From positions 160,216 through 224,215 of the forward strand of contig JAXLZV010000001.1 of NCBI GenBank assembly GCA_046350755.1: a stretch of DNA of 64,000 nt. The letters are read 5' to 3'. Positions within the stretch are counted from its first letter, which is position 1, and each line of letters starts with the position of its first letter. The notes below the pieces were generated by a model. It did not search any database and was not told the origin of the DNA. It saw only the letters and a program-made list of their open reading frames with translations. Below are positions 4,731 through 62,074 of the stretch, in pieces. Position numbers and translations under genes: made by a program. This DNA is from Candidatus Saccharimonadota bacterium (GTDB lineage Bacteria > Patescibacteriota > Saccharimonadia > CAILAD01 > GCA-016700035).

Positions 4731-5414
4731 TCAGTTAGCCGGCAGCGTGTAATCAAGTTCGGTGAAAAAACGGGCTTCGGCTGGCGCTTCGAGTAACTTA
4801 ATCAGATCCGGCATACTGGGCATCATTTTGTTATCTGACCAGTCCTGATCTGGTGTCGCCCAGAAGAGCTCCCCGGCCGGATGATGCGCGTGTGGATCGG
4901 TACTTGGCGCCACACCAGTAAAGAGATGAAAGAGAACTTCACTCACCGGCTCCTTATCTTCGGCCGAGCGAATGGTAATATAGCCGTCACCCCGGTGATG
5001 GAGAACAGCTTGCAATCCTGTCTTTTCAAACAGCTCACGAGCGGCAGCTTCGGCGATCTTCTCATCGCGATGCAGCTTCCCGTAGGGAAATCCGACCTTA
5101 CCAAGCAAGGGCTGAACCTTGCGCTTCATCAGCAACCACCGGCCAAGTCGATCATGACAGGCGAGGAGAATAATGATCTTTGGCTGTATGCGCGGCTTGA
5201 GATTCGACAGACTGAGGCTATCAACATAGCGTTTGCCAGCCGAGGTGAGGCCATAGGTTCCCCAGCTTGTCCGCATAACGTAACCCGAATCCTTCAATGA
5301 CTTGAGGTGATAGGCGAACACATTACTCTCCAAGCCTTTTGGTTTTATTTGCGCATACCGCAGGTTCTCGCCCTGCATAAGTTCCCCGAGTATCGTACGC
5401 TGAATATGATGCAT
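4731..5414 (-). CDS. Nudix hydrolase fused to an N-terminal winged-HTH domain (NrtR-like regulator architecture, inverted order)
   Basis: The N-terminus has an HTH-like segment (QRTILGELMQGENLRYAQI...HLKSLKDSGYV). The Nudix box is GKLHRDEKIAEAAARELFEKTGL (Gx5Ex7REUxEExGU). Confidence 0.65.
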   Translation of the reverse strand: MHHIQRTILGELMQGENLRYAQIKPKGLESNVFAYHLKSLKDSGYVMRTSWGTYGLTSAGKRYVDSLSLSNLKPRIQPKIIILLACHDRLGRWLLMKRKVQPLLGKVGFPYGKLHRDEKIAEAAARELFEKTGLQAVLHHRGDGYITIRSAEDKEPVSEVLFHLFTGVAPSTDPHAHHPAGELFWATPDQDWSDNKMMPSMPDLIKLLEAPAEARFFTELDYTLPAN

Positions 5415-5554
5415 ATCCCTAGATTACCATAAGTTGAGTCAATATTCTGTAGACAGATTAACCAATTAGCTTCTTCAATCAGTCATCATGCTTATTGTAT
5501 TTATCTATATTTATGGTAATATATACTTACTGTTCCCCAGAGAAAGGGCTCGAC

Positions 5555-6190
5555 ATGAGCCGCACCTTGCAACGTATCATCGAGTGGCTACTGACCGCCA
5601 TCTTACTCATCCCAGCCCTTGTCATCTCAGCAATTGCTGCCATAGTAATCATGCTTGTCGACGGTCACTCACCGTTTTTTCATCAAGAACGCATCGGTAA
5701 AAACGGCTCTCCTTTCCCATGCTTCAAACTGCAGACTATGCGACCAAAGCAGGATGGCGAGCATTACCACAATCCTGATGATGACGCCCGACGCGTTACT
5801 CCTCTCGGAGCATGCTTACGCGCTCACGCCATCGATGAACTCCCACAGTTTATCAATATCCTCCGGGGCGAGATGAGGCTCTTCGGACCTCGTCCGTTGG
5901 CAGTTGAAACAATTCACGAAATCCGCGAGTCGTGCACTGACGATCTGGCAATCTTCACCCAATGGAGCGCCCGGCGTCAAACACTTTCGCCCGGCCTGTG
6001 CGGCTGGTGGCAAGTCCACACCAGTGACAACCGCAGTCTGCACTACGACAATGAGTACTATGACGGCCTGACACTGCGTCAGTTCTGTAAGATGGTCGGC
6101 CTGTCATTCAAGATCTTGCCGTCCGGGAAAAGCTCCCTGCACGCCTGCAGCGAGCCAAGTAGCCCCCTGCCCACCGACCTCAGTCCATGA
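5555..6190 (+). CDS. Polyprenyl-phosphate sugar phosphotransferase (bacterial sugar transferase family, WbaP/PglC-like)
   Basis: An N-terminal TM helix is followed by FKLQTMRP (the KFRSM-like motif), LPQFINILRGEMRLFGPRPL and PGLCGWWQV. The preferred start is MSRTLQRIIEW at 5555; the ORF-track start at 5495 is an AT-rich over-extension. Confidence 0.8.
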   Translation: MSRTLQRIIEWLLTAILLIPALVISAIAAIVIMLVDGHSPFFHQERIGKNGSPFPCFKLQTMRPKQDGEHYHNPDDDARRVTPLGACLRAHAIDELPQFINILRGEMRLFGPRPLAVETIHEIRESCTDDLAIFTQWSARRQTLSPGLCGWWQVHTSDNRSLHYDNEYYDGLTLRQFCKMVGLSFKILPSGKSSLHACSEPSSPLPTDLSP

Positions 6191-6311
6191 GGTCGGTATA
6201 TTTTTGTCAATTTTCTTTGAGTCAAAACGTCTCGTCTAGAAGTTACTGTGGCTTTGCGTGATAGTAAGAGTGTAATCGCACCTTACAAAAAGAATCCCTT
6301 GAGGAGGATCC

Positions 6312-6815
6312 ATGCTAGACGCTACAGAGCTAACCAGCTTACTGTCTCAGATAGAGCACTCGCAGTTCGGACTGCAAACCAAACAAGCCGATCTGGAGAT
6401 AGCCGAACAACGAGTCAAGACCGCACGTAGTCAACTTTACAGCTTGCAGCAAGCATATCGTAGCGGGCGACGCGACTTCATCCACCAGGCGCTTGATGCT
6501 TACCAACGAGCTATGTGTGCTTACTGTAAGAAAATCCGCCCGCGTGAGCAAATGAAAACAGTCTGCGAAATGGGCTACTACGTCGACAGTGACTGCCGAT
6601 ACAATCGCTGGGAAGTCCCCTATGAGCATTACTTCCCGATCTGCTCGCGCTGTGCCCTTGAGAGAACATTTAGCACGAAGGAGGAAAATGGCTATATAGT
6701 TGGCAAGGCTCTCCTCGATTTCGATATTGCCGTACACGATCGGTGGATCGACTATGGCGACGAACAGCTCAATACAATCAACCATGCCATGAGCTTAGGC
6801 CTGCCTCAGCTCTAG
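6312..6815 (+). CDS. Hypothetical protein with an N-terminal coiled-coil and a C-terminal 4-Cys zinc-ribbon-like cluster
   Basis: There is a good RBS (GAGGAGGA) 5 nt upstream of the ATG and a strong terminator downstream. The Cys cluster reads CAYCKK...C...C...CSRC. No family recognised. Confidence 0.55.
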   Translation: MLDATELTSLLSQIEHSQFGLQTKQADLEIAEQRVKTARSQLYSLQQAYRSGRRDFIHQALDAYQRAMCAYCKKIRPREQMKTVCEMGYYVDSDCRYNRWEVPYEHYFPICSRCALERTFSTKEENGYIVGKALLDFDIAVHDRWIDYGDEQLNTINHAMSLGLPQL

Positions 6816-6843
6816 GTTAGCCCGTCCTTCATCCCTCATACGA

Positions 6844-6878
6844 GAAAATCCCTCGTCTGAGGGATTTTCTTCTTGTCT
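6844..6878 (+). terminator. Rho-independent terminator after the 6312..6815 gene
   Basis: Hairpin AAATCCCTC-GTCT-GAGGGATTT followed by TTCTTCTTG. Confidence 0.55.
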
Positions 6879-6891
6879 TCAGTGGCAAAGC

Positions 6892-7368
6892 TTAGTAGCG
6901 AGCAAAGTGCGCAAAGGCTTTATTAGCCTCGGCCATCTGATGCGTATCTGCCTTTTTCTTAATCGCATCACCCTGATTATTGTAAGCATCTAGGAGCTCA
7001 TTCGCTAAGCGCTTATCAAAGCTGCGGCCTTCTTTGGCTCGAGCGGCATCCAGCATCCAAATCATCGCGTAATGAATACGGCGATCAGGCTTCACTTCCA
7101 TCGGCACCTGATAGTTAGCGCCACCAACACGACGGGATTTCACCTGTACTTGTGGGCTAGCATTCTTAATCGCGCCTTCAAAGATCTCCATGGCGTCCTT
7201 CTTAGACTTGGTAGCCGCTTCATCGAGCGCACTGTAGACCAAGCGCTCAGCCAAGCGCTTCTTGCCATCTTTCATGACCTTATTGATCATGCGTGTCACA
7301 AGAATCGAATTGTACTGCAAATCAGCTGGCAATTCACGCTTGAGTGATTTCGTCTTCTTTCGTGGCAT
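6892..7368 (-). CDS. rpsG: 30S ribosomal protein S7
   Basis: MPRKKTKSLKRELPADLQYNS... is the canonical S7 sequence, and the gene lies directly downstream of rpsL. Confidence 0.95.
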   Translation of the reverse strand: MPRKKTKSLKRELPADLQYNSILVTRMINKVMKDGKKRLAERLVYSALDEAATKSKKDAMEIFEGAIKNASPQVQVKSRRVGGANYQVPMEVKPDRRIHYAMIWMLDAARAKEGRSFDKRLANELLDAYNNQGDAIKKKADTHQMAEANKAFAHFARY

Positions 7369-7371
7369 AGC

Positions 7372-7791
7372 TTATCCCTTGGCCTTTTCTAATTTAGCAC
7401 CATACTTTGAGCGTCCCTGCTTACGTGCGGCGACACCTGCCGTGTCGAGTGAACCACGCACGACGTGATAGCGCACACCCGGAAGGTCTTTCACACGACC
7501 ACCGCGCACCAGCACAACTGAGTGTTCTTGCAGGTTATGTCCAATACCACCGATATAGGCTGTAACTTCCATACCATTCGTCAAGCGTACACGAGCCACC
7601 TTACGAAGCGCCGAGTTTGGCTTCTTTGGGGTCTGAGTAAATACCTTCGTGCAAACACCACGTTTAAACGGCGCGTTTAATGAACGAGTCCGACCCTTGA
7701 GCGCATTGAGATTGCGACCGAGAGCTGGCGACTTACTCTTTTTGCGAGCAGCCGTCCGTGGTTTACGAATGAGTTGATTGATAGTTGGCAT
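7372..7791 (-). CDS. rpsL: 30S ribosomal protein S12
   Basis: [12 protein letters not shown]...[19 protein letters not shown] is the canonical S12 sequence. Confidence 0.95.
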
Positions 7792-7959
7792 AAAACTTGA
7801 TTATCTTACCAGATTAGGTTAATTGGGTCAACAGGTGTGGGAAACTTGAGTTGATATCAGGGCGAGATTTCGCGAGCCGGGTGTCGATGGAGAATGGCAG
7901 ACCAAGTAAGGACTTGCCACTCCCACATCAACACTGCATTTGGCGCGAGAGATCAGTGG

Positions 7960-42489: not shown

Positions 42490-42604
42490 TGTACGCCAAG
42501 AACGCGAGCGTTTTAATCTTGACTTTTATGCTCATTTATGATATCGTGCGCGAGTTCTATGTAATCGCATGGATAACCTTCACAACCTAGAGAAAGAGGA
42601 CGCC

Positions 42605-43288
42605 ATGAAGTCTTCAGGTGAGTTGCTCCGAGAATATCTCGAGCAGCAGCCCGAGAAGATCAAGGATGTGCGCAATTTCTGTAATGTTGCTAGCAAGACC
42701 GTGAGATCGTGGCTCAAGGGTACCAACCCGAAGGGCATCACACAGTGTAGACTCTTCGTCTACCTACTCGAACAGCAGCTAGCGCCAGCAGAGTTGCTCA
42801 AGACCGAACCCGACATCATTCTCCTTGCCGTTCTGGTGGCTCACGACTATGTGAGCTCTCAAGAGGCCATGAAGGTGATGGGCTCTACCTCCAAGTCTGA
42901 TCAGCAGCTCTGGGGTTGGATCCGTAGCGACACACAGCCGCTGCCCAAAGCCCTAGAGCTCCTGCAAGACTGGCTGGATGCAGTCGATGGCGATCGCTCA
43001 CGAAGACTGATCGCCGCAGAATTTCTCGGTACGACAACCGTGGCGGAGCAATCCCCCGCAAACGTCATTCCGTTGTCGTTCGACTCGAGCGACCAGATCA
43101 TCGAGAATTTGGCAGCATTGTTGTCAGCGGTCTACCCACTCGCCAAGCGCGTGGAAGCCGATGACTTCAGTAATGCCGACCGTGAACGCCTTCGGGCGCT
43201 GATCGGTGAAGACCAGTTCTTCAAGCTCACGAACGCCCTGACCCGCCTCTCCGGCACCAAGGCACGTTCGTACACCCAGTCCATTTAA
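42605..43288 (+). CDS. Hypothetical protein with a putative N-terminal helix-turn-helix
   Basis: An AAAGAGGA RBS lies 6 nt before the ATG at 42605 (alternative ATG at 42569). EYLEQQPEKIKDVRNFCNVASKTVRSWLKG resembles an XRE-type HTH. The C-terminus is unknown. Confidence 0.5.
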   Translation: MKSSGELLREYLEQQPEKIKDVRNFCNVASKTVRSWLKGTNPKGITQCRLFVYLLEQQLAPAELLKTEPDIILLAVLVAHDYVSSQEAMKVMGSTSKSDQQLWGWIRSDTQPLPKALELLQDWLDAVDGDRSRRLIAAEFLGTTTVAEQSPANVIPLSFDSSDQIIENLAALLSAVYPLAKRVEADDFSNADRERLRALIGEDQFFKLTNALTRLSGTKARSYTQSI

Positions 43289-43311: not shown

Positions 43312-45009
43312 ATGACCCGCCGTCGACGTCCCCGTCCAACCCAGGGTGGCCGTAAGGCCCCCGCGACCCCGGCGACACCTCAGCCCATTCGGGATAAGGT
43401 GTCGTTCAACCAGGGCAAGGTCATCATGCACCTTGCCAAGTCGACCTACACCACGTTGATCCAGGTGATCGCTGAGTGCGTCCAGAACGCACTCGACGCC
43501 GGTGCAACCGTCATCGACATCGCTGTCGATGAGAAGCGGCGCAGCATCGTCGTTGCCGACAACGGCGGTGGCGTGACTCTGGAGAAGTTCCACGAGGCCC
43601 TTGGCTCCGTTGGGCATGGGATCAAGGATCCCGGCTCACTCGGACGCTTCGGCCTCGGCCTCATCTCGCCGCTCGATAAGTGCGACTACTACACCTTCAG
43701 CTCCTGGCTTCCCGGCGAGTCGAAGGGGTGGTGCTGGACCTTCCGGGCCGGTGAGATCGAGGCGATGGCCGACGAAGTCGACATCCCTCGGGCTGGTGCC
43801 AAGCGTCACGCTGGCGCTGAGTGGAATACCATCGTGCGCATCCACCGCTACACCTCCGACTCGCAGACGGCCGCAATGACGGCTGAACGCGTCGAGGAAT
43901 TCGTGCAGTCCAAGCTGGGACCCACCATGCGCAAGCGCGGTGTGACCTGCCGGCTGCACTTCGGTGGCCCAGACGGCGAGGTCGTCCAGAAGACGATCAA
44001 GCCGACCGACTTCACCGGTGAGCCTTTCGAGATCACGATCTACACCGAGCCCGACGCGGGCGAAGTGGAGTTCGAGCTCTACCGCGCCCGCAAGACGACC
44101 AAGGGTCGTCAGGGCATGGTGAGTCTCTCGGAAGCGGATGCCCCATACCCGATCACCTTCACCGAGTTCAAGCGGCAGGCTCACGCCTTCCTCGGCGACG
44201 ACGTGAAGAAGGCTCTCAGCTCCGGCTACTTTGAGGGCATCATTCGAGCCAAGAAGGTGGAGCTGCATCCCAACCGCCGCAAGTTCGTCTGGAATGACGC
44301 GGTTGTCGGGCTCTGCATCGCCATCGAACAGTGGTTCGAAGACATCGGGCACAAGCTCTACACCGATGAGCAGGTCCAGGAAGAGGAGGCTCGCCTCCAG
44401 CGCCTGGGCGTGCAGACGCTCGACCGGCTGAAGGATCTCCTCAAGCTGGAAGAGTCGGAACACCTGCGCAAGATCATCGAAAGCCTGCATGTCGGCTCGA
44501 TCGGCAGTGGGCACAACGAGCTCCCCAGCTCGGGGGACATGGATGAGCGTGGTTTGCGCTCTGGTCAGGGCGGCACGGGCAAGCCCCGCAACCGCAATGG
44601 TCAGACCAAGCCACGTGATCCGTCGAAGCCCAAGCAGCCCGAACGGACCGGCGACAAGCCGGGTGTCTCGGTTGGCCCCGAGGGCCAGCACCGCAAGGTG
44701 GTGCGCGACAGCTCGACCGGTATCTCCATCTGCCACGAGATCCTGCCCGGTTCCGACCGACTGTGGGAGATCGACGCAGCGTCGGCGATGATCTACATCA
44801 ACGTGCGTCACCCGGTGTTCTTGCTCGTCGAGCACGCCGACACGTACGTCTTGCAGCTGCAGGAGTGGATCGTGCTGCAGGCGCTGTCGTTGCTGATGTT
44901 CCCGGTCGACAGCCGAGAGCTCCTCCACGACTACGCAGACAGCTACGCTCGCGAGTTCGTGGTGGTCTCGATCCTCGGATCGAGACAGCGCCGCCGCGGT
45001 AGCGTCTGA
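43312..45009 (+). CDS. GHKL/Bergerat-fold ATPase (MORC / MutL-N / HATPase_c_3-like) with an unknown C-terminal region
   Basis: AAGGAG RBS. The N-box is IAECVQNALDAGAT, the G1 box is VADNGGGVT and the G2 box is LGRFGLGLISP. Downstream is a Gly/Lys/Pro/Arg-rich low-complexity linker, then a C-terminal domain of unknown function. Confidence 0.7.
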   Translation: MTRRRRPRPTQGGRKAPATPATPQPIRDKVSFNQGKVIMHLAKSTYTTLIQVIAECVQNALDAGATVIDIAVDEKRRSIVVADNGGGVTLEKFHEALGSVGHGIKDPGSLGRFGLGLISPLDKCDYYTFSSWLPGESKGWCWTFRAGEIEAMADEVDIPRAGAKRHAGAEWNTIVRIHRYTSDSQTAAMTAERVEEFVQSKLGPTMRKRGVTCRLHFGGPDGEVVQKTIKPTDFTGEPFEITIYTEPDAGEVEFELYRARKTTKGRQGMVSLSEADAPYPITFTEFKRQAHAFLGDDVKKALSSGYFEGIIRAKKVELHPNRRKFVWNDAVVGLCIAIEQWFEDIGHKLYTDEQVQEEEARLQRLGVQTLDRLKDLLKLEESEHLRKIIESLHVGSIGSGHNELPSSGDMDERGLRSGQGGTGKPRNRNGQTKPRDPSKPKQPERTGDKPGVSVGPEGQHRKVVRDSSTGISICHEILPGSDRLWEIDAASAMIYINVRHPVFLLVEHADTYVLQLQEWIVLQALSLLMFPVDSRELLHDYADSYAREFVVVSILGSRQRRRGSV

Positions 45010-45081: not shown

Positions 45082-45110
45082 TTGACTTTAAACCCTTATG
45101 ATTGTAATAT
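45082..45110 (+). promoter_or_regulatory. Candidate sigma-70 promoter for the 45155..45835 gene
   Basis: TTGACT, a 17-nt spacer and TAATAT, with an AAGGAG RBS before the GTG at 45155. Confidence 0.4.
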
Positions 45111-45154
45111 ATTTTTACTGTTCGCCCGAACATTCGTACCTTACAAGGAGCACT

Positions 45155-45835
45155 GTGGATACACCAACCGAACCCACCAAACGACAGCCGGGAGCCGCAT
45201 CGACGCGCTCCTGCAGCCTGAACGAAGCTCTGTCGAGCTTCTATGCCCTCAAGGGATGGCTCAGACGGCGCCAGCTCGATGACTGGCTGCCACAGCTCGC
45301 CATCGTCTGGACCGACCGCAACGGCCATGCCGTTCTGGCAATCCGTGGCGACAACGCCATGGGCCCTGCACCGCAGGATGCCAATCAGGCGGCCCAAGCC
45401 GCATTGCGCCCGCACTGCATCGAGCAGGGAGCTGCCACCATTCAGACAGCCGCCAAGCAGGTGCTGGGGGCAGTTGGGGTCTACGGACGCAGTCCAGCCG
45501 ACAACCATCTCGTCGCCTGCCTGGCAGCGGAGTTGGTCTTCGAGCCAGATATGCCAGCAGAACTCCTTGAGGTCTGCGTCGAGGAGCGCTTCCAGCAAGA
45601 CGGCCTCGAAGTCCCAGACGTGCCATTGGCGGTCTCGCCAGGTGTGTCATCATTCGCAGGTTTGCAAGCGGTGATGGCTGGAGCTGGCGTGTTGAGGCTC
45701 TTGCCTGGCCAAACCTACGGCTGGCCGAGCCAGCTCGATCCGCCGCTGACGCAACCACAAGCCGGTGTCAGACTCATCACCGAGCGTGACATCCCCGGCC
45801 ACGTACCGGGGCATGGTGGTGGACTCTTCGGCTGA
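45155..45835 (+). CDS. Hypothetical GC-rich protein (last gene of island 2)
   Basis: A GTG start 5 nt after the AAGGAG RBS; Ala/Gly/Pro-rich with no recognisable motif. The ORF-track start at 45098 runs into the AT-rich promoter and is unlikely. Confidence 0.45.
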   Translation: MDTPTEPTKRQPGAASTRSCSLNEALSSFYALKGWLRRRQLDDWLPQLAIVWTDRNGHAVLAIRGDNAMGPAPQDANQAAQAALRPHCIEQGAATIQTAAKQVLGAVGVYGRSPADNHLVACLAAELVFEPDMPAELLEVCVEERFQQDGLEVPDVPLAVSPGVSSFAGLQAVMAGAGVLRLLPGQTYGWPSQLDPPLTQPQAGVRLITERDIPGHVPGHGGGLFG

Positions 45836-58375: not shown

Positions 58376-59356
58376 ATGCGCCACTACAACGCCATCTCAC
58401 GCATCAAAAAGGGTCGAAAATTCGTCTACATTGGCAAAGATGGTGAGGTGCGCAACAAAAAGACACTGGCCTATATCGAGTCGCTCGCCATTCCGCCGGC
58501 TTGGGATGCGGTAACGATCTCCAGTTCACCAAATGCCAAGGTTCTCGCCACCGGCCAAGACGCAGCTGGACGCTCACAGTCGATATACAACCCAAAGTTT
58601 CGCGCTCGGCAGGAAAAGCTAAAGTTTGACCGCATTCTCCGCTTTGCCGATGCTCTGCCTCGCCTGCGCCGTCAAATCAATACCGACCTGAGTCGCAAGC
58701 GCTTAGTCAAAGAAAAAGTATTAGCCTGTATCGTACGGCTCATCGATGAAGCCTATTTCCGCGTCGGCAACGAAAAATACGCCCGTGAAAACCACAGCTA
58801 TGGCATCACTACCCTACGCTCTAAGCACACCGACGTAACCGGCAGCACTGTGACGTTTGATTTTATCGGCAAAAGCGGCAAGCAACACATTAAGTCCATC
58901 ACCGATAAGCAGGTGGCGCGGATCGTCAAGCAGCTCGATGAGCTCCCTGGCTATGAGGTTTTTCGCTATATCGATCACGAAGGTAAGCTACACGACATCG
59001 ATAGCGCCGACGTCAATGAGTACATCAAGCAATACATGGGCGAAGAATTCAGCGCCAAGGATTTTCGAACCTGGGGCGGTACACTACTCGCCACCAGTGA
59101 ACTCCTAGCCTGCGAGCGCTTTCGCCACCGAGCCGATCGACAGCGCCAGGTGGTTGAGGTCGTACGTAATGTCGCCGAGCGACTCGGTAATACCCCAGCC
59201 GTCGCCCGCGGTAGCTACATCGATCCACGCGTGATTGAAGCCTACACCGAATCAACCCGACTGGAGAAAATCAAAGTCGCCATGGAAAAGATGCGCCCTA
59301 AAAAATACATGAGTCGCGACGAACAGGCAGTCTTGCGCCTCTTAGAAATCAGTTAA
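58376..59356 (+). CDS. DNA topoisomerase IB (bacterial/poxvirus-type)
   Basis: N-terminus YIGKDGEVRNKKTLAYIESLAIPPAWDAV, the catalytic pentad context (K...R...KDFRTWGG...H) and an active-site Tyr in ARGSYIDP; ~326 aa, as for Deinococcus TopIB. Confidence 0.75.
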   Translation: MRHYNAISRIKKGRKFVYIGKDGEVRNKKTLAYIESLAIPPAWDAVTISSSPNAKVLATGQDAAGRSQSIYNPKFRARQEKLKFDRILRFADALPRLRRQINTDLSRKRLVKEKVLACIVRLIDEAYFRVGNEKYARENHSYGITTLRSKHTDVTGSTVTFDFIGKSGKQHIKSITDKQVARIVKQLDELPGYEVFRYIDHEGKLHDIDSADVNEYIKQYMGEEFSAKDFRTWGGTLLATSELLACERFRHRADRQRQVVEVVRNVAERLGNTPAVARGSYIDPRVIEAYTESTRLEKIKVAMEKMRPKKYMSRDEQAVLRLLEIS

Positions 59357-59374: not shown

Positions 59375-60397
59375 TTATGAGAAACTTTGCTGACTAAGCT
59401 TAATCATCTTGCGGTAATACGCATATGGGTAATTCAGCTTTCCGAAGCCTGGCAGTCCATGCTTTAACAGCAGATAACGCACCTGAGCGGGTGAGAGTAC
59501 ACGTACTTCCGCTAGTTCAGCAGGCTGAATCACAAAGTTTGGTGTACTATCGAGGTGAATGTGGTATGACCAAAGATGAGTTTTTGAGTAGCGACGGAAT
59601 TGTGGATGGGAGTGGTTCCAACGCCGCCGCTCGAGTAGCCGCATCGCATCAGTTTTGACCTCTATGCCGAGTTCTTCGGCTATTTCCCGCCGCATCGCCC
59701 GCTCCGGCGTCTCACCACCATCAACCGCTCCACCGACCGAAATGTCTAGTCGGCCTGGCGACAGAATAATTTGTGGTGAGCGTTTCTCCACGACAAAGCC
59801 AGCTGGAGTCGTAATGATGGCATGACAAGATCTGTGCCATAAGTCTGGATCCGCACTGGCCCATGATATTGGCAGCTGATAACCAAGCTCCCGGTCATCC
59901 CGATCTACGATATCAACCCAGCCCAACTGCGTGACCTCACGCACGAGCTCATCAACGCGCTGAGTAATCGTTCTGTATGTTCGCTCTGCAATATCGTCCT
60001 GCGCGCGGTGATCCGCGAGGTTGAGCCGATGCTTATGACCAAACTCATACCAATCATCGATATGCCAGCTTTTGGCTTTATGATGGTTAAACTCGAATCG
60101 TTTTTTCGCATCACGTAGAATGTCAGTTTGCATAAAAATAATAAGGTCCGGCCGAGATAGGCTCTCATGAGTGGTCTGAATCCTCACTGGCGACAGCCTG
60201 AGATCTAGCTTGTGATGCTGCGCGATGTGAGCAACCAGCGGTGAAATAGTGTGACGATGAGGGTAATGCTTGGAAGCTTCAATGCCACTGCACGAAAACT
60301 CAACGTTTTTCAGCTTGAGCGTCTGGGCGTAGAGTAAGGCCAAGCGACTGCGGTAGATATTCCCCCGACACACAAAATGAATATGTCTTTTTGTCAT
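59375..60397 (-). CDS. Fusion protein: low-molecular-weight phosphotyrosine phosphatase-like (arsenate-reductase fold) N-domain plus a Nudix hydrolase C-domain
   Basis: HFVCRGNIYRS is the CX5R(S/T) P-loop, and GGAVDGGETPERAMRREIAEELGI is the Nudix box. The start is taken at MTKRHIHFV (60397). Confidence 0.65.
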   Translation of the reverse strand: MTKRHIHFVCRGNIYRSRLALLYAQTLKLKNVEFSCSGIEASKHYPHRHTISPLVAHIAQHHKLDLRLSPVRIQTTHESLSRPDLIIFMQTDILRDAKKRFEFNHHKAKSWHIDDWYEFGHKHRLNLADHRAQDDIAERTYRTITQRVDELVREVTQLGWVDIVDRDDRELGYQLPISWASADPDLWHRSCHAIITTPAGFVVEKRSPQIILSPGRLDISVGGAVDGGETPERAMRREIAEELGIEVKTDAMRLLERRRWNHSHPQFRRYSKTHLWSYHIHLDSTPNFVIQPAELAEVRVLSPAQVRYLLLKHGLPGFGKLNYPYAYYRKMIKLSQQSFS

Positions 60398-60466
60398 AAT
60401 ACTTATCCTTAGTATATCAGCCAGCAAATTTGCTTAGAACCTTAAGTAGAACAGGGTTTAAATATA

Positions 60467-60495
60467 TTGCTTTTTTATACCTTTTATGCTATAAT
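60467..60495 (+). promoter_or_regulatory. Sigma-70-type promoter upstream of the metallopeptidase leader
   Basis: TTGCTT, a 17-nt spacer and TATAAT (60490..60495). Confidence 0.45.
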
Positions 60496-60513
60496 ATGAG
60501 CCTCACCTTGAGA

Positions 60514-60640
60514 AGGCGGCTATCTGGTATCTCTCCTGGAATCAACTAGGAAACACTTATCTGATACTAATCTGTCCAACAGATAGCAGATAGCCGTCTT
60601 CACCTGAAGGCGCGTCCACTCTGGATCCGCCCTAGGAGGG
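60514..60640 (+). promoter_or_regulatory. Structured ~130-nt 5' leader with nested inverted repeats and five TATCTG/CAGATA hexamer copies; candidate riboregulator or MITE-like insert
   Basis: CGGCTATCTG (60517..60526) pairs with CAGATAGCCG (60587..60596), and GTATC pairs with GATAC inside it. CAGATAG is tandemly duplicated. A CACC segment can pair with the GGTG of the AGGAGGGTG RBS region. Confidence 0.35.
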
Positions 60641-60645
60641 TGAAA

Positions 60646-61662
60646 ATGAACCTGAACAAGAAGATGCTGAGTCGGCTCATGCTGGTTCTGATGCTGGCCC
60701 TCGGGCTGACATCGGCCGCCTGTGCCGCACCATCCCCTCCCACCTGGGAGAACCCAACCACGTGGGATTTCACGCTGCACGTCAGCGTGACTTCTGACAT
60801 GGTCACCAAGTACGGTGGCCTGACTGGCGTCCGCGCCAAGGTCGACCAACAGCTCGTCACCGTGAACCAGCACTACGCTGGCTTCGACAAGCCCATCCGT
60901 TGGATCGTCAAGGACCTGGTGGTCTACTCTGGATCCGCATTGACCCAAGCTCAGCTCGGGACAAATGGGGCCAACTACTCCCTCACCTACACCGAACAAC
61001 CGGTGCCCGAGAATGGTGGTTGGCGGCCATGGATCTACTCGATCATCATCAATTGGCTTCCGACCGACGGTGGTGTCTTCGGACAGTACGGTGCCTCCTC
61101 GCTGATCCACGAACTGGGTCACGCGCGAGGCGGTATCGACATGTATGGACTGCGAGTCGATGGGGTGAACAATCCCGTCAATGGTGCAGCCTATGTGCCA
61201 CCGGCCAGCTGGATGAATCTGTGGTACCTCCCCGAGCAGCAGCTCTGGGATCAGTACACCAGGAACATCGTCAACGCTTCGGCGACGACGGTGTACAATG
61301 ACGACCGAGTCGTCATGAACTCGCTGCCTGCAACCTATCGGGTCAAGGTGGTGAATTCCAGCGGCAACCTGGTTCCCAACGCGACAGTGTCGGTCTACCC
61401 GGTGGATTGGTTCGCCTACAAGGTGACGCCAACCGCCATCATGGCCGGTACCAGTGCTACGAACGGTCTCTGGACTCTCCCGTCCGACCCGTTCGGTCCA
61501 TCGCTGAGTGCTCCCAAGTGGCACCTCTGGCGCCCGCTCGTCTTGGTGACGGCTTCGGTCGGCACCCAGAAGGGCTACGCCTGGCTGTCACTGCCAGACG
61601 CCGGGAACGCGTACTTCGCGAACCCGACCGCACCCTTCCAGCTGACCGTCGTGGTTGGCTAA
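60646..61662 (+). CDS. Secreted (signal peptide, possible lipoprotein) zinc metallopeptidase with an HExxH motif and a C-terminal beta-rich domain
   Basis: An AGGAGG RBS lies 6 nt before the ATG at 60646. The signal peptide is MLSRLMLVLMLALGLTSAACAAP, the zinc motif is SLIHELGHARGG, and the C-terminus has Ig-like YRVKVVNSSGNLVPNATVSVYPV. Confidence 0.65.
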   Translation: MNLNKKMLSRLMLVLMLALGLTSAACAAPSPPTWENPTTWDFTLHVSVTSDMVTKYGGLTGVRAKVDQQLVTVNQHYAGFDKPIRWIVKDLVVYSGSALTQAQLGTNGANYSLTYTEQPVPENGGWRPWIYSIIINWLPTDGGVFGQYGASSLIHELGHARGGIDMYGLRVDGVNNPVNGAAYVPPASWMNLWYLPEQQLWDQYTRNIVNASATTVYNDDRVVMNSLPATYRVKVVNSSGNLVPNATVSVYPVDWFAYKVTPTAIMAGTSATNGLWTLPSDPFGPSLSAPKWHLWRPLVLVTASVGTQKGYAWLSLPDAGNAYFANPTAPFQLTVVVG

Positions 61663-61720: not shown

Positions 61721-61769
61721 TTTATACTCATGGCTGGTCAAGGTATAATCACTCGGTAGTAGGCAACTT

Positions 61770-61846
61770 GGGTAATTAGCTCAGCTGGTTAGAGCGCTGC
61801 ATTCACATTGCAGAGGTCACAGGTTCGAGTCCTGTATTACCCACCA
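61770..61846 (+). tRNA. tRNA-Val (anticodon CAC)
   Basis: GGGTAATTAGCTCAGCTGGTTAGAGC..., anticodon loop UUCACAU and a 3' ACCA. Upstream there is a TTTATA, a 17-nt spacer and TATAAT. Confidence 0.9.
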
Positions 61847-61847
61847 C

Positions 61848-61923
61848 GGGGCTATAGCTCAGCTGATAGAGCGCTGCATTCGCATTGCAGAGGTCGGGAG
61901 TTTGAATCTCCCTAGCTCCACCA
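61848..61923 (+). tRNA. tRNA-Ala (anticodon CGC)
   Basis: GGGGCTATAGCTCAGCTGATAGAGC..., a G3:U70 pair in the acceptor stem (GGGGCTA/TAGCTCC), anticodon loop UUCGCAU and a 3' ACCA. Confidence 0.9.
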
Positions 61924-61926
61924 CCG

Positions 61927-61955
61927 TTGAAATCTCGATTATTTCAGGTTATAAT
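61927..61955 (+). promoter_or_regulatory. Consensus sigma-70 promoter for tRNA-Val(TAC)
   Basis: TTGAAA (61927..61932), a 17-nt spacer and TATAAT (61950..61955), 10 nt before the tRNA 5' end. Confidence 0.5.
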
Positions 61956-61965
61956 ATGTCGACTT

Positions 61966-62042
61966 GGGTGATTAGCTCAGCTGGCTAGAGCATCTCGTTT
62001 ACACCGAGAGGGTCGGGGGTTCGAGTCCCTCATCACCCACCA
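61966..62042 (+). tRNA. tRNA-Val (anticodon TAC)
   Basis: GGGTGATTAGCTCAGCTGGCTAGAGC..., anticodon loop UUUACAC and a 3' ACCA. Confidence 0.9.
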
Positions 62043-62050
62043 TAAAAAGT

Positions 62051-62074
62051 GCCCCTTGCGGGGCTCTTTTTTTT
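62051..62074. terminator. Bidirectional terminator (tRNA cluster on plus; the 62073..62384 gene on minus)
   Basis: GCCCC-TTGC-GGGGC, with TTTTTTTT on plus and an A-run giving TTTTTAT on minus. Confidence 0.6.

Follow-up and report, generated by a model that had tools for sequence, protein, structure and literature searches.

Bacterial 5′ leaders that act on the mRNA carrying them have been described in several forms. Leaders that sequester the Shine-Dalgarno (SD) sequence, among them translational riboswitches and the leaders of ribosomal-protein operons, consist of a covarying multi-helix 5′ untranslated region (UTR) in which one segment pairs with the SD, and they have no terminator. RNase III-processed 5′ leaders are known from Escherichia coli adhE, phage lambda N, and the T7 early mRNAs, and 5′ stem-loop stabilizers are known from the ompA 5′ UTR, the Bacillus aprE leader, and ermC. 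Here, we describe a segment that may join these systems. It precedes a peptidase gene in a 64,000-nucleotide (nt) stretch of a Candidatus Saccharimonadota bacterium (contig JAXLZV010000001.1, positions 160,216 to 224,215; referred to as the window). Positions 60496-60645 of the window probably constitute the 5′ untranslated leader of the peptidase mRNA and a functional cis-acting RNA that affects translation or stability, a reading that we hold with a confidence slightly above even. On the comparative sequence evidence, the leader is best read as an undescribed family of structured cis-acting leader RNAs in one Saccharibacteria clade, that is, a new family of a known kind (cis-regulatory 5′ leaders). 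Full-text literature searching found no report of such a leader, of a cis-regulatory RNA, or of this peptidase in Saccharibacteria or Patescibacteria.

The leader shares with SD-sequestering leaders the covarying multi-helix 5′ UTR, the segment pairing with the SD, and the lack of a terminator. It differs from them in that its conserved nucleotides lie in helices and in AUCUG repeats, that it has no Rfam match, and that no low-energy alternative conformer was found. It resembles RNase III-processed leaders in having a near-continuous 5′ UTR duplex of approximately 20 base pairs (bp) and an occluded ribosome-binding site (RBS), and cleavage could unmask the SD or alter stability; however, the sequence conservation of AUCUG is no known RNase III determinant. 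As in 5′ stabilizers, a helix lies a few nt from the presumed 5′ end of an mRNA for an exported protein or protease with a strong (here predicted) promoter, but this leader has three to four helices, repeated motifs, and conservation beyond what 5′-end protection needs.

The repeats that drew attention to this segment were first described in a first-pass annotation made from the sequence alone, and most of that description was borne out. Reading of the sequence placed TATAAT at 60490-60495 and the start codon ATG at 60646-60648, as annotated. A 10-bp inverted repeat, CGGCTATCTG (60517-60526) and CAGATAGCCG (60587-60596), has arms exactly 60 nt apart with GTATC (60527-60531) and GATAC (60563-60567) between them, and a repeat finder recovered the tandem duplicate of CAGATAG (60580-60586 and 60587-60593). 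The same program extended the inverted repeat beyond 10 bp to 21 nt with 90% complementarity (60512-60532 against 60581-60601). A perfect 10-bp inverted repeat alone is mildly unusual, with 16 positions in the window and 6 in shuffled sequences. Some details required correction. The 13-bp terminal inverted repeat is imperfect, agreeing at 12 of 13 positions. Four, not five, of the TATCTG/CAGATA hexamers are exact (TATCTG at 60521 and 60558; CAGATA at 60580 and 60587); of the further TATCTG copies listed, the one at 60521 is correct, the one placed at 60559 starts at 60558, and the one placed at 60570 is AATCTG (60569-60574), a five-of-six match. The cluster itself is present. Four TATCTG copies within 80 nt occurred in none of 300 shuffles, where the maximum of three was reached in two, and TATCTG is not enriched across the window (27 copies vs 26 expected). 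The window has a G + C content of approximately 52% and nine tRNA genes.

Folding of the leader predicted a stable structure, with energies well below those of shuffled sequences. The region 60497-60660 folded at -63.4 kcal/mol (z = -5.3), and the region 60505-60610, which covers the main helix, at -42.7 kcal/mol (z = -6.5); in each case, none of 200 shuffles was as good. In both the minimum free energy (MFE) and the centroid structure, UCACCUU at 60503-60509 (the anti-SD strand) pairs with AGGGUGA at 60637-60643, forming a helix designated P0 and realizing the pairing between a CACC tract and the GGTG overlapping the RBS that had been proposed. The SD GGAGG (60635-60639) and the P0 3′ strand together (60635-60643) are mostly paired in the ensemble. 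The main helix, P1, is formed by the 21-nt inverted repeat, with its 5′ arm GAAGGCGGCUAUCUGGUAUCU at 60512-60532 and its 3′ arm AGAUAGCAGAUAGCCGUCUUC, which carries the tandem CAGATAG, at 60581-60601; the repeat finder, the MFE structure, and an anchored pair table all point to the 3′ arm. In the MFE structure of the window, P1 comprises 15 bp, a 1 × 1 mismatch, and 5 bp. Its interior contains a side hairpin (UCCUGG-AAUCAA-CUAGGA, 60534-60551, in the MFE structure) and, at 60570-60584, an apical hairpin AUCUG-UCCAA-CAGAU that is itself an inverted repeat. Three copies of ATCTG lie in this region, the first in the 5′ arm at 60522-60526 and the second and third, starting at 60559 and 60570, in a direct repeat TATCTG-N5-AATCTG (60558-60574) with a spacing of 11 nt. 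The end of the P1 3′ arm and a downstream copy of the P1 5′ strand make up a UCUUC-ACCU-GAAGG element (60597-60610), and a further hairpin in the MFE structure, P2 (60603-60636), lies directly 5′ of the SD and partly over it.

Single-sequence folds and RNAalifold on two independent alignments agreed on P0, P1, the apical hairpin, the CCUUC..GAAGG element, and P2. An alternative fold of the window with the apical hairpin and a GUAUC:GAUAC pairing lay only 1.3 kcal/mol above the MFE, and in these models the repeated units permit near-degenerate pairing registers.

Homologous leaders were compared from approximately 19 distinct loci whose peptidases share 41-51% protein identity and whose genome records are labelled Candidatus Saccharibacteria or Patescibacteria. 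They fall into three lineage groups, namely W (the window, L026, and L027; long P1 interior), A (L010, L011, L012, and others; compact P1), and B (L013, L033, and L035), with L031, L021, and L022 as outliers. The leader is identical in nine metagenomic contigs encoding an identical protein (the same strain), and among the homologues its length ranges from 100 to 165 nt. What the loci have in common is the -35 element, an extended -10 element at 17 nt, the P1 core, the ATCTG motifs, CCTTC..GAAGG, and the SD context. In the window, the -35-like hexamer is TTGCTT (60467-60472, plus strand), and TTGCTT, TTGACT, or TTGCAT occurs 17 nt 5′ of the -10 element in nearly all homologous loci. Of 17 leaders, 16 have a TG(C/T)TATAAT-like counterpart of the extended -10 element TGCTATAAT (60487-60495, plus strand), and its separation from the first helix is short and constant; the 29-nt promoter string occurs once in the window. 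From the conserved extended -10 element we infer that transcription would start at approximately 60499-60503, which would place P0, beginning 8 nt past the last T of TATAAT, approximately 1-4 nt from the 5′ end. No alignment was found between loci 5′ of the -35 element, where the upstream gene varies among Top1B, a NUDIX-phosphatase fusion, and a tRNA. Since both the upstream sequence and the upstream gene differ between loci, the conserved unit consists of the promoter, the leader, and the gene.

The repeats are conserved in the homologous leaders as a structure maintained by compensatory changes. Of the 10 pairs at the base of P1, with the consensus GAAGGYGGCU/AGCYRCCUUC, five showed compensatory double changes among 17 sequences. 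In the alignment of groups W and A, 93.9% of the pair cells were canonical, compared with 35-54% when partners were slid, and the covariation score was reached by none of 500 shuffles. A gap-free pair table of 16 lineages anchored on the invariant GGC/GCC core of P1 contained 15 stacked positions, of which 12 were paired in at least 15 of the 16 lineages and five showed three to four pair types; one non-canonical position was conserved three pairs above the core. G-U pairs are frequent in P1. The sense strand folded better than the antisense strand in 12 of 16 leaders, by a mean of 5.3 kcal/mol, and covariance-model scores were 48-119 bits for the sense strand, except in the divergent L021 (35) and L022 (30), compared with 11-37 bits for the antisense strand.

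The geometry of P1 varies while its pairing persists. Its inner span ranges from 26 to 72 nt with the arms still complementary, and it includes sense-strand AUCUG motifs in every case; the interior measures 72 nt in the window and 34-38 nt in the A group, an expansion of approximately 38 nt in the window lineage that includes the side hairpin, which is missing in A-group leaders. The apical loop is 4-7 nt long and variable in sequence, and the stem recurs across lineages as AUCUG-loop-CAGAU/CGGAU. This combination of variable interior and loops with preserved stems rules out a duplex-DNA operator of fixed geometry for the inverted repeat. The base of P2 (GGG:CCC type) was present in the RNAalifold consensus, and a hairpin occurs at the equivalent place in the B group. 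In the B-group consensus, the CCUUC..GAAGG element folds as a mini-hairpin of its own, and forcing this fold on the other leaders costs 7-22 kcal/mol. By pattern search, CCTTC-N3-7-GA(A/G)GG or a close variant was found in 19 of 20 leaders scanned, 17 of them strictly; L010 and L038 have TGGTGG/TGGAGG in its place, and the TCTTC form of the window was read by eye. Total fold energies of the leaders were -50 to -74 kcal/mol. Taken together, the comparative data strongly support the P1 structure and moderately support P0 and P2.

The pairing of the SD recurs across lineages with different sequences. RNAalifold recovered the P0 helix both in groups W and A and in group B with L031, and in 10 of 17 leaders its duplex energy was better than that of shuffled sequences (p ≤ 0.05). 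The strands are UCACCUU:AGGGUGA in groups W and A, GGUUCUUU:AAGGAGAAACC in group B (3′ side AAGGAG(A)AACC), GUCUUCUU:AGGGAGAC in L021, and CACUCUG:UGGAGUG in L031, with the P0 5′ strand and the nucleotides on either side of the SD core covarying. The mean unpaired probability of 60630-60642 was 0.11, compared with 0.28 when the upstream part was shuffled. These results are in line with the first-pass suggestion of an RBS-sequestering riboregulator, as the structure is stable and conserved and the anti-SD:SD pairing is recurrent. The thermosensor half of that suggestion was not sustained, since the paired probability of 60635-60643 was 0.98 at 10°C, 0.96 at 37°C, and still 0.88 at 65°C. RNA thermometers such as ROSE and fourU likewise have the SD paired by an upstream leader segment, but their helices are short, imperfect, and easily melted, whereas here the SD is predicted to be paired up to 65°C in a fold of -63 kcal/mol.

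ATCTG was the most over-represented 5-mer of the leaders: a set of 14 non-redundant leaders contains 27 copies where 1.8 would be expected, and no more than seven were seen in any of 2000 shuffles. Its complement, CAGAT, occurred only 12 times. Adjacent copies lie exactly 11 nt apart in groups W, A, and B. The pairing partners of the A group have become CGGAU and CUGGUUA, changes that preserve the pairs through G-U while the sense ATCTG stays intact, which argues that selection acts both on pairing and on the sequence of the sense strand itself. A spacing of 11 nt corresponds to one turn of an A-form helix, and in the modelled structure this phasing would suit a protein that recognizes P1 from one side.

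A mechanism can be proposed from these features. In the default fold, P0 would lock the 5′ end and the SD together, with P1 and P2 flanking it in a three-helix junction, and an mRNA in this fold would be long-lived and poorly translated. A hypothetical trans-acting factor would recognize P1, loosen P0 and P2, and set the level of translation. The features recognized could be the GGC/GCC core, the non-canonical position three pairs above it, and the AUCUG motifs one A-form turn apart. The factor might be an RNA-binding protein, an RNase III-type activity cleaving the duplex of approximately 21 bp, or, less likely, a small ligand.

Several points weigh against this reading. Promoter function, which we infer from sequence and conservation, underlies the placement of the 5′ end. 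The compared genomes are moderately diverged (the neighboring Top1B is 83-84% identical), and therefore the independent compensatory events are few. After the upstream leader was shuffled, the SD was still approximately 70% paired. Opening the segment from the SD to the AUG costs 10.8 kcal/mol, compared with 7.6 ± 3.4 kcal/mol in 48 control open reading frames (ORFs) of the window, among which it ranks fifth; after this control, SD accessibility was dropped as a stand-alone argument. P0 is weak or absent in five leaders (L010/L038, L037/L039, and L022). A switch in which the 3′ end of P1 re-pairs with the downstream GAAGG was considered and is now no more than a speculation, as it lies 7-22 kcal/mol uphill and L012 has a change whose compensation is found in P1, not in the alternative helix; with the one alternative conformer tested lying uphill, no spontaneous switch is evident. 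The greater conservation of ATCTG than of its pairing partner, along with the 11-nt phase, would also fit a DNA-binding protein. Lastly, the ligand, protein, or RNase acting on the leader is a candidate only.

The alternative that survives best is a constitutive mRNA stabilizer, which we consider unlikely but worth serious attention. A fixed 5′ structure would guard against 5′-end-dependent RNases without any switching, and SD pairing would be incidental or would tune a fixed rate. The position of P0 within a few nt of the presumed 5′ end is what such a role would call for, and the very stable, temperature-insensitive fold, the failure to find a low-energy alternative junction conformer, and an SD opening cost within the range of ordinary genes all agree with it. 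A stabilizer needs a 5′ hairpin only, however, and this leaves unexplained the GGC/GCC core and the conserved mismatch, the strand-specific AUCUG motifs phased at 11 nt, the CCUUC..GAAGG element, and the separate P2.

An operator in the DNA downstream of the promoter, made up of the ATCTG copies and read, for example, by an OmpR/PhoB-type response regulator, with the RNA hairpin being secondary, appears improbable. Such operators are short direct repeats with a period of about one turn (11 nt), which the ATCTG copies resemble in their enrichment and in their spacing in groups W, A, and B; furthermore, a CAGATA just 5′ of P1 in the B-group loci L013 and L033 has become TATCTG in L035, a flip that would be natural for a duplex site. 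To this extent, the cluster of regulator binding sites described earlier would still be conceivable. Unlike OmpR/PhoB operators, however, these copies lie inside a transcribed leader at a variable distance from the promoter, the repeat pair being 29/40, 50/61, or 64/75 nt past the -10 element depending on the group, and within helices with G-U pairs and compensatory changes. The arm spacing of 26-72 nt and the apical loop of 4-7 nt are incompatible with a fixed dimeric operator, the A-group variants CGGAT and CTGGTTA keep G-U pairing but destroy the site on the other strand, compensatory changes occur in the base of P1, and no regulator gene is conserved beside the locus. The variable spacing, the G-U pairs, and the compensatory changes thus fit RNA better, and this RNA-level evidence favors a protein reading one face of P1 over an OmpR/PhoB-type DNA repeat.

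We give still less credence to a riboswitch for a small molecule or metal ion, in which the P0-P1-P2 junction would be the aptamer and the ligand state would determine whether the SD is freed. The conserved junction of several helices, one of which pairs with the SD, would be in keeping with this idea, and a metal signal is conceivable for a product that is predicted to be a zinc enzyme. The highest conservation, however, is in the helices and the AUCUG units, not in junctions or loops, the size of the P1 interior is highly variable, and, apart from one weak second case, the motif accompanies a single gene family, not a metabolic regulon. None of the 4227 models of Rfam 15, riboswitches included, matched the leader; at gathering thresholds, only tRNAs were identified in the window, and a search at E ≤ 10 on 60380-60720 gave only two noise hits (sR52, E value 1.4; MIR868, E value 9.6), which agrees with the first-pass statement that the leader belongs to no known riboswitch class. 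An RNA thermometer or a mobile insertion like a miniature inverted-repeat transposable element (MITE) is scarcely credible, because, although the SD is paired in the fold and the segment has internal repeats and, like MITEs and repetitive extragenic palindromic (REP)-like sequences, terminal inverted repeats (12/13) around a short intergenic segment, SD pairing stays at or above 0.88 up to 65°C with fold energies of -50 to -74 kcal/mol, and the element is single-copy, lacks a target-site duplication, and lies at the same position in all relatives with the same promoter and gene always alongside.

Searches for further copies of the element support its single-copy nature. Neither pattern searching nor two covariance models, a whole-leader model (R1) and a P1-hairpin model (R2), found a second copy in the 64-kb window, the terminal-repeat-like string had no other occurrence there, and the hairpin occupies the orthologous site in every relative; the MITE interpretation offered in the first-pass annotation was abandoned on these grounds. 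In approximately 350 kb of related loci, the leader was single-copy except for one related hairpin in L039/L040, described below. BLAST of the locus against a plasmid collection gave no match, and viral contigs contained no relative of the peptidase. The next-best R2 match in the window (7889-7925, minus strand; 16 bits) was rejected as a plain GC-rich hairpin, GGAGUGGCA...UGCCAUUCUCC, without AUCUG; it is intergenic, between ORFs of 1259 and 139 amino acids. A loose pattern for P1-like hairpins returned only coding-region noise, and eight viral matches to a degenerate P1 pattern scored approximately 20 bits, as the pattern itself enforces; the one examined, in L047, lay inside an ORF. A possible likeness of the P1 3′ strand to the 790-loop region of 16S rRNA was not collinear and was dropped.

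Two other modes of control were considered. No intrinsic terminator was found in 60496-60645; P1 is followed by ACCUGAAGG without a U-tract, so control is not by intrinsic termination. A leader peptide starting at the ATG at 60496 was rejected, as this codon overlaps the -10 element and is probably not transcribed and the 17-codon frame is not conserved (four codons in L026).

The gene downstream of the leader (60646-61662, plus strand) encodes a 338-amino-acid predicted lipoprotein, the signal peptide of which ends in Cys. No Pfam match was detected, and NCBIfam gave noise only; because the family libraries gave no match, a fold search was needed to place the protein. In the AlphaFold model (predicted local distance difference test score, 87), the best Foldseek matches were the catalytic domains of snake-venom, ADAM, and ADAMTS proteins, with E values of 1e-6 to 1e-5, and a weak profile match to ecarin was also obtained. 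The protein contains the motif HELGHARGGID; all of 20 homologues keep its HELGH and Asp, and the Gly of the extended motif shows almost no variation. The label of metallopeptidase given to this gene is justified by the motif together with the predicted metzincin fold, and the product is predicted to be an adamalysin-like metzincin lipoprotein, a zinc peptidase with a C-terminal beta domain.

The peptidase gene is not on a mobile element but in a conserved chromosomal neighborhood, in which the gene order is M48 peptidase, LemA, Top1B, the peptidase gene, a DUF975/UPF0259 membrane protein, an FAD oxidase, and a transglycosylase. The divergent gene upstream in the window (59375-60400, minus strand) encodes a protein in which a low-molecular-weight phosphotyrosine phosphatase domain is joined to a NUDIX domain, whereas other lineages have a Tricorn_N/PD40 protein or no gene at all at this place; the interval between Top1B and the peptidase gene is thus variable. 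Directly downstream of the peptidase gene lies a cluster of tRNA-Val(CAC), tRNA-Ala(CGC), and tRNA-Val(TAC) at 61770-62042, with near-consensus promoters at 61721-61749 and 61927-61955 and a bidirectional terminator-like hairpin at 62051-62064.

The G + C content at third codon positions (GC3) of the peptidase gene is 0.77, compared with 0.58 ± 0.07 in 48 ORFs of the window. Homologues in Saccharibacteria have values of 0.76-0.89, except L021 (0.62) and L022 (0.68), and their neighbors mostly lie at approximately 0.3-0.65. The peptidases are 41-51% identical where the adjacent Top1B (58376-59356) is 83-84% identical. This gap in identity, together with the gap in GC3, indicates that the peptidase gene is fast-evolving and persistently aberrant in composition. 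The GC3 anomaly persists across lineages despite the locus being syntenic and vertically inherited; its possible causes include GC-biased gene conversion at a recombination hot spot, selection on the mRNA, and exchange with high-GC hosts. Some of the closest relatives of the peptidase, at 51% identity, are encoded in L019 and L030, contigs with a G + C content of 66-68%, unlike Saccharibacteria. A GC-rich hairpin of another kind, CUCCCGGUUCCG...CGGAACGGGGAGGG, is present in L030 and would also cover the SD there. The other GC3 outlier of the window (0.825) is a 565-amino-acid HATPase_c_3 protein (43312-45009, plus strand), which is without a leader of the peptidase kind; its neighbors (42569-43288 and 45098-45835) also have raised GC3 values of 0.67-0.68, and the whole segment may be a horizontally acquired or defence islet.

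The related hairpin in L039/L040, CUCCCUUGAGAGCGGC...AUCUGA-UAAU-UCAGGU...GCCGUUCUC, received scores of 34 bits from R2 and 16.8 bits from R1. The gene in whose 5′ UTR it lies (7735-7784, minus strand) encodes the variable protein of a diversity-generating retroelement (DGR). In L039, and in the same form in L040, the DGR spans 4947-7794 and comprises a reverse transcriptase (4947-6008, minus strand), bAvd (6124-6327, plus strand), and the variable-protein gene (6883-7713, minus strand); the template repeat (6374-6491) and the variable repeat (6890-7007) form a 118-nt pair with 86% identity. The GC3 of the variable-protein gene is 0.72. With the metzincin lipoprotein and the DGR variable protein as candidates, and one extra locus as the basis, it is conceivable, though we think it rather doubtful, that Saccharibacteria have a small post-transcriptional regulon of their own, with the AUCUG-hairpin leader as its hallmark and with surface or host-interaction genes that evolve fast and are rich in GC3 as its members. 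Strong promoters would then yield mRNAs masked by pairing of the 5′ end and the SD, which would be released by an RNA-binding factor or RNase reading AUCUG motifs one A-form turn apart on P1, for example upon host contact.

Patescibacteria are ultrasmall epibionts with few recognizable regulators, and to our knowledge the control of gene expression in this group, Saccharibacteria included, is almost uncharted. The leader described here precedes a fast-evolving surface metalloprotease that is a plausible host-interaction factor, it is short (approximately 150 nt), and each of its helices and motifs has been assigned at single-nucleotide resolution. It therefore offers a concrete entry point to regulation in these bacteria. 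If it were a fixed stabilizer only, it would be an ordinary, though elaborate, 5′ UTR. If the links to the DGR leader and to GC3 are true, they would point to a dedicated post-transcriptional program for surface proteins in this phylum.

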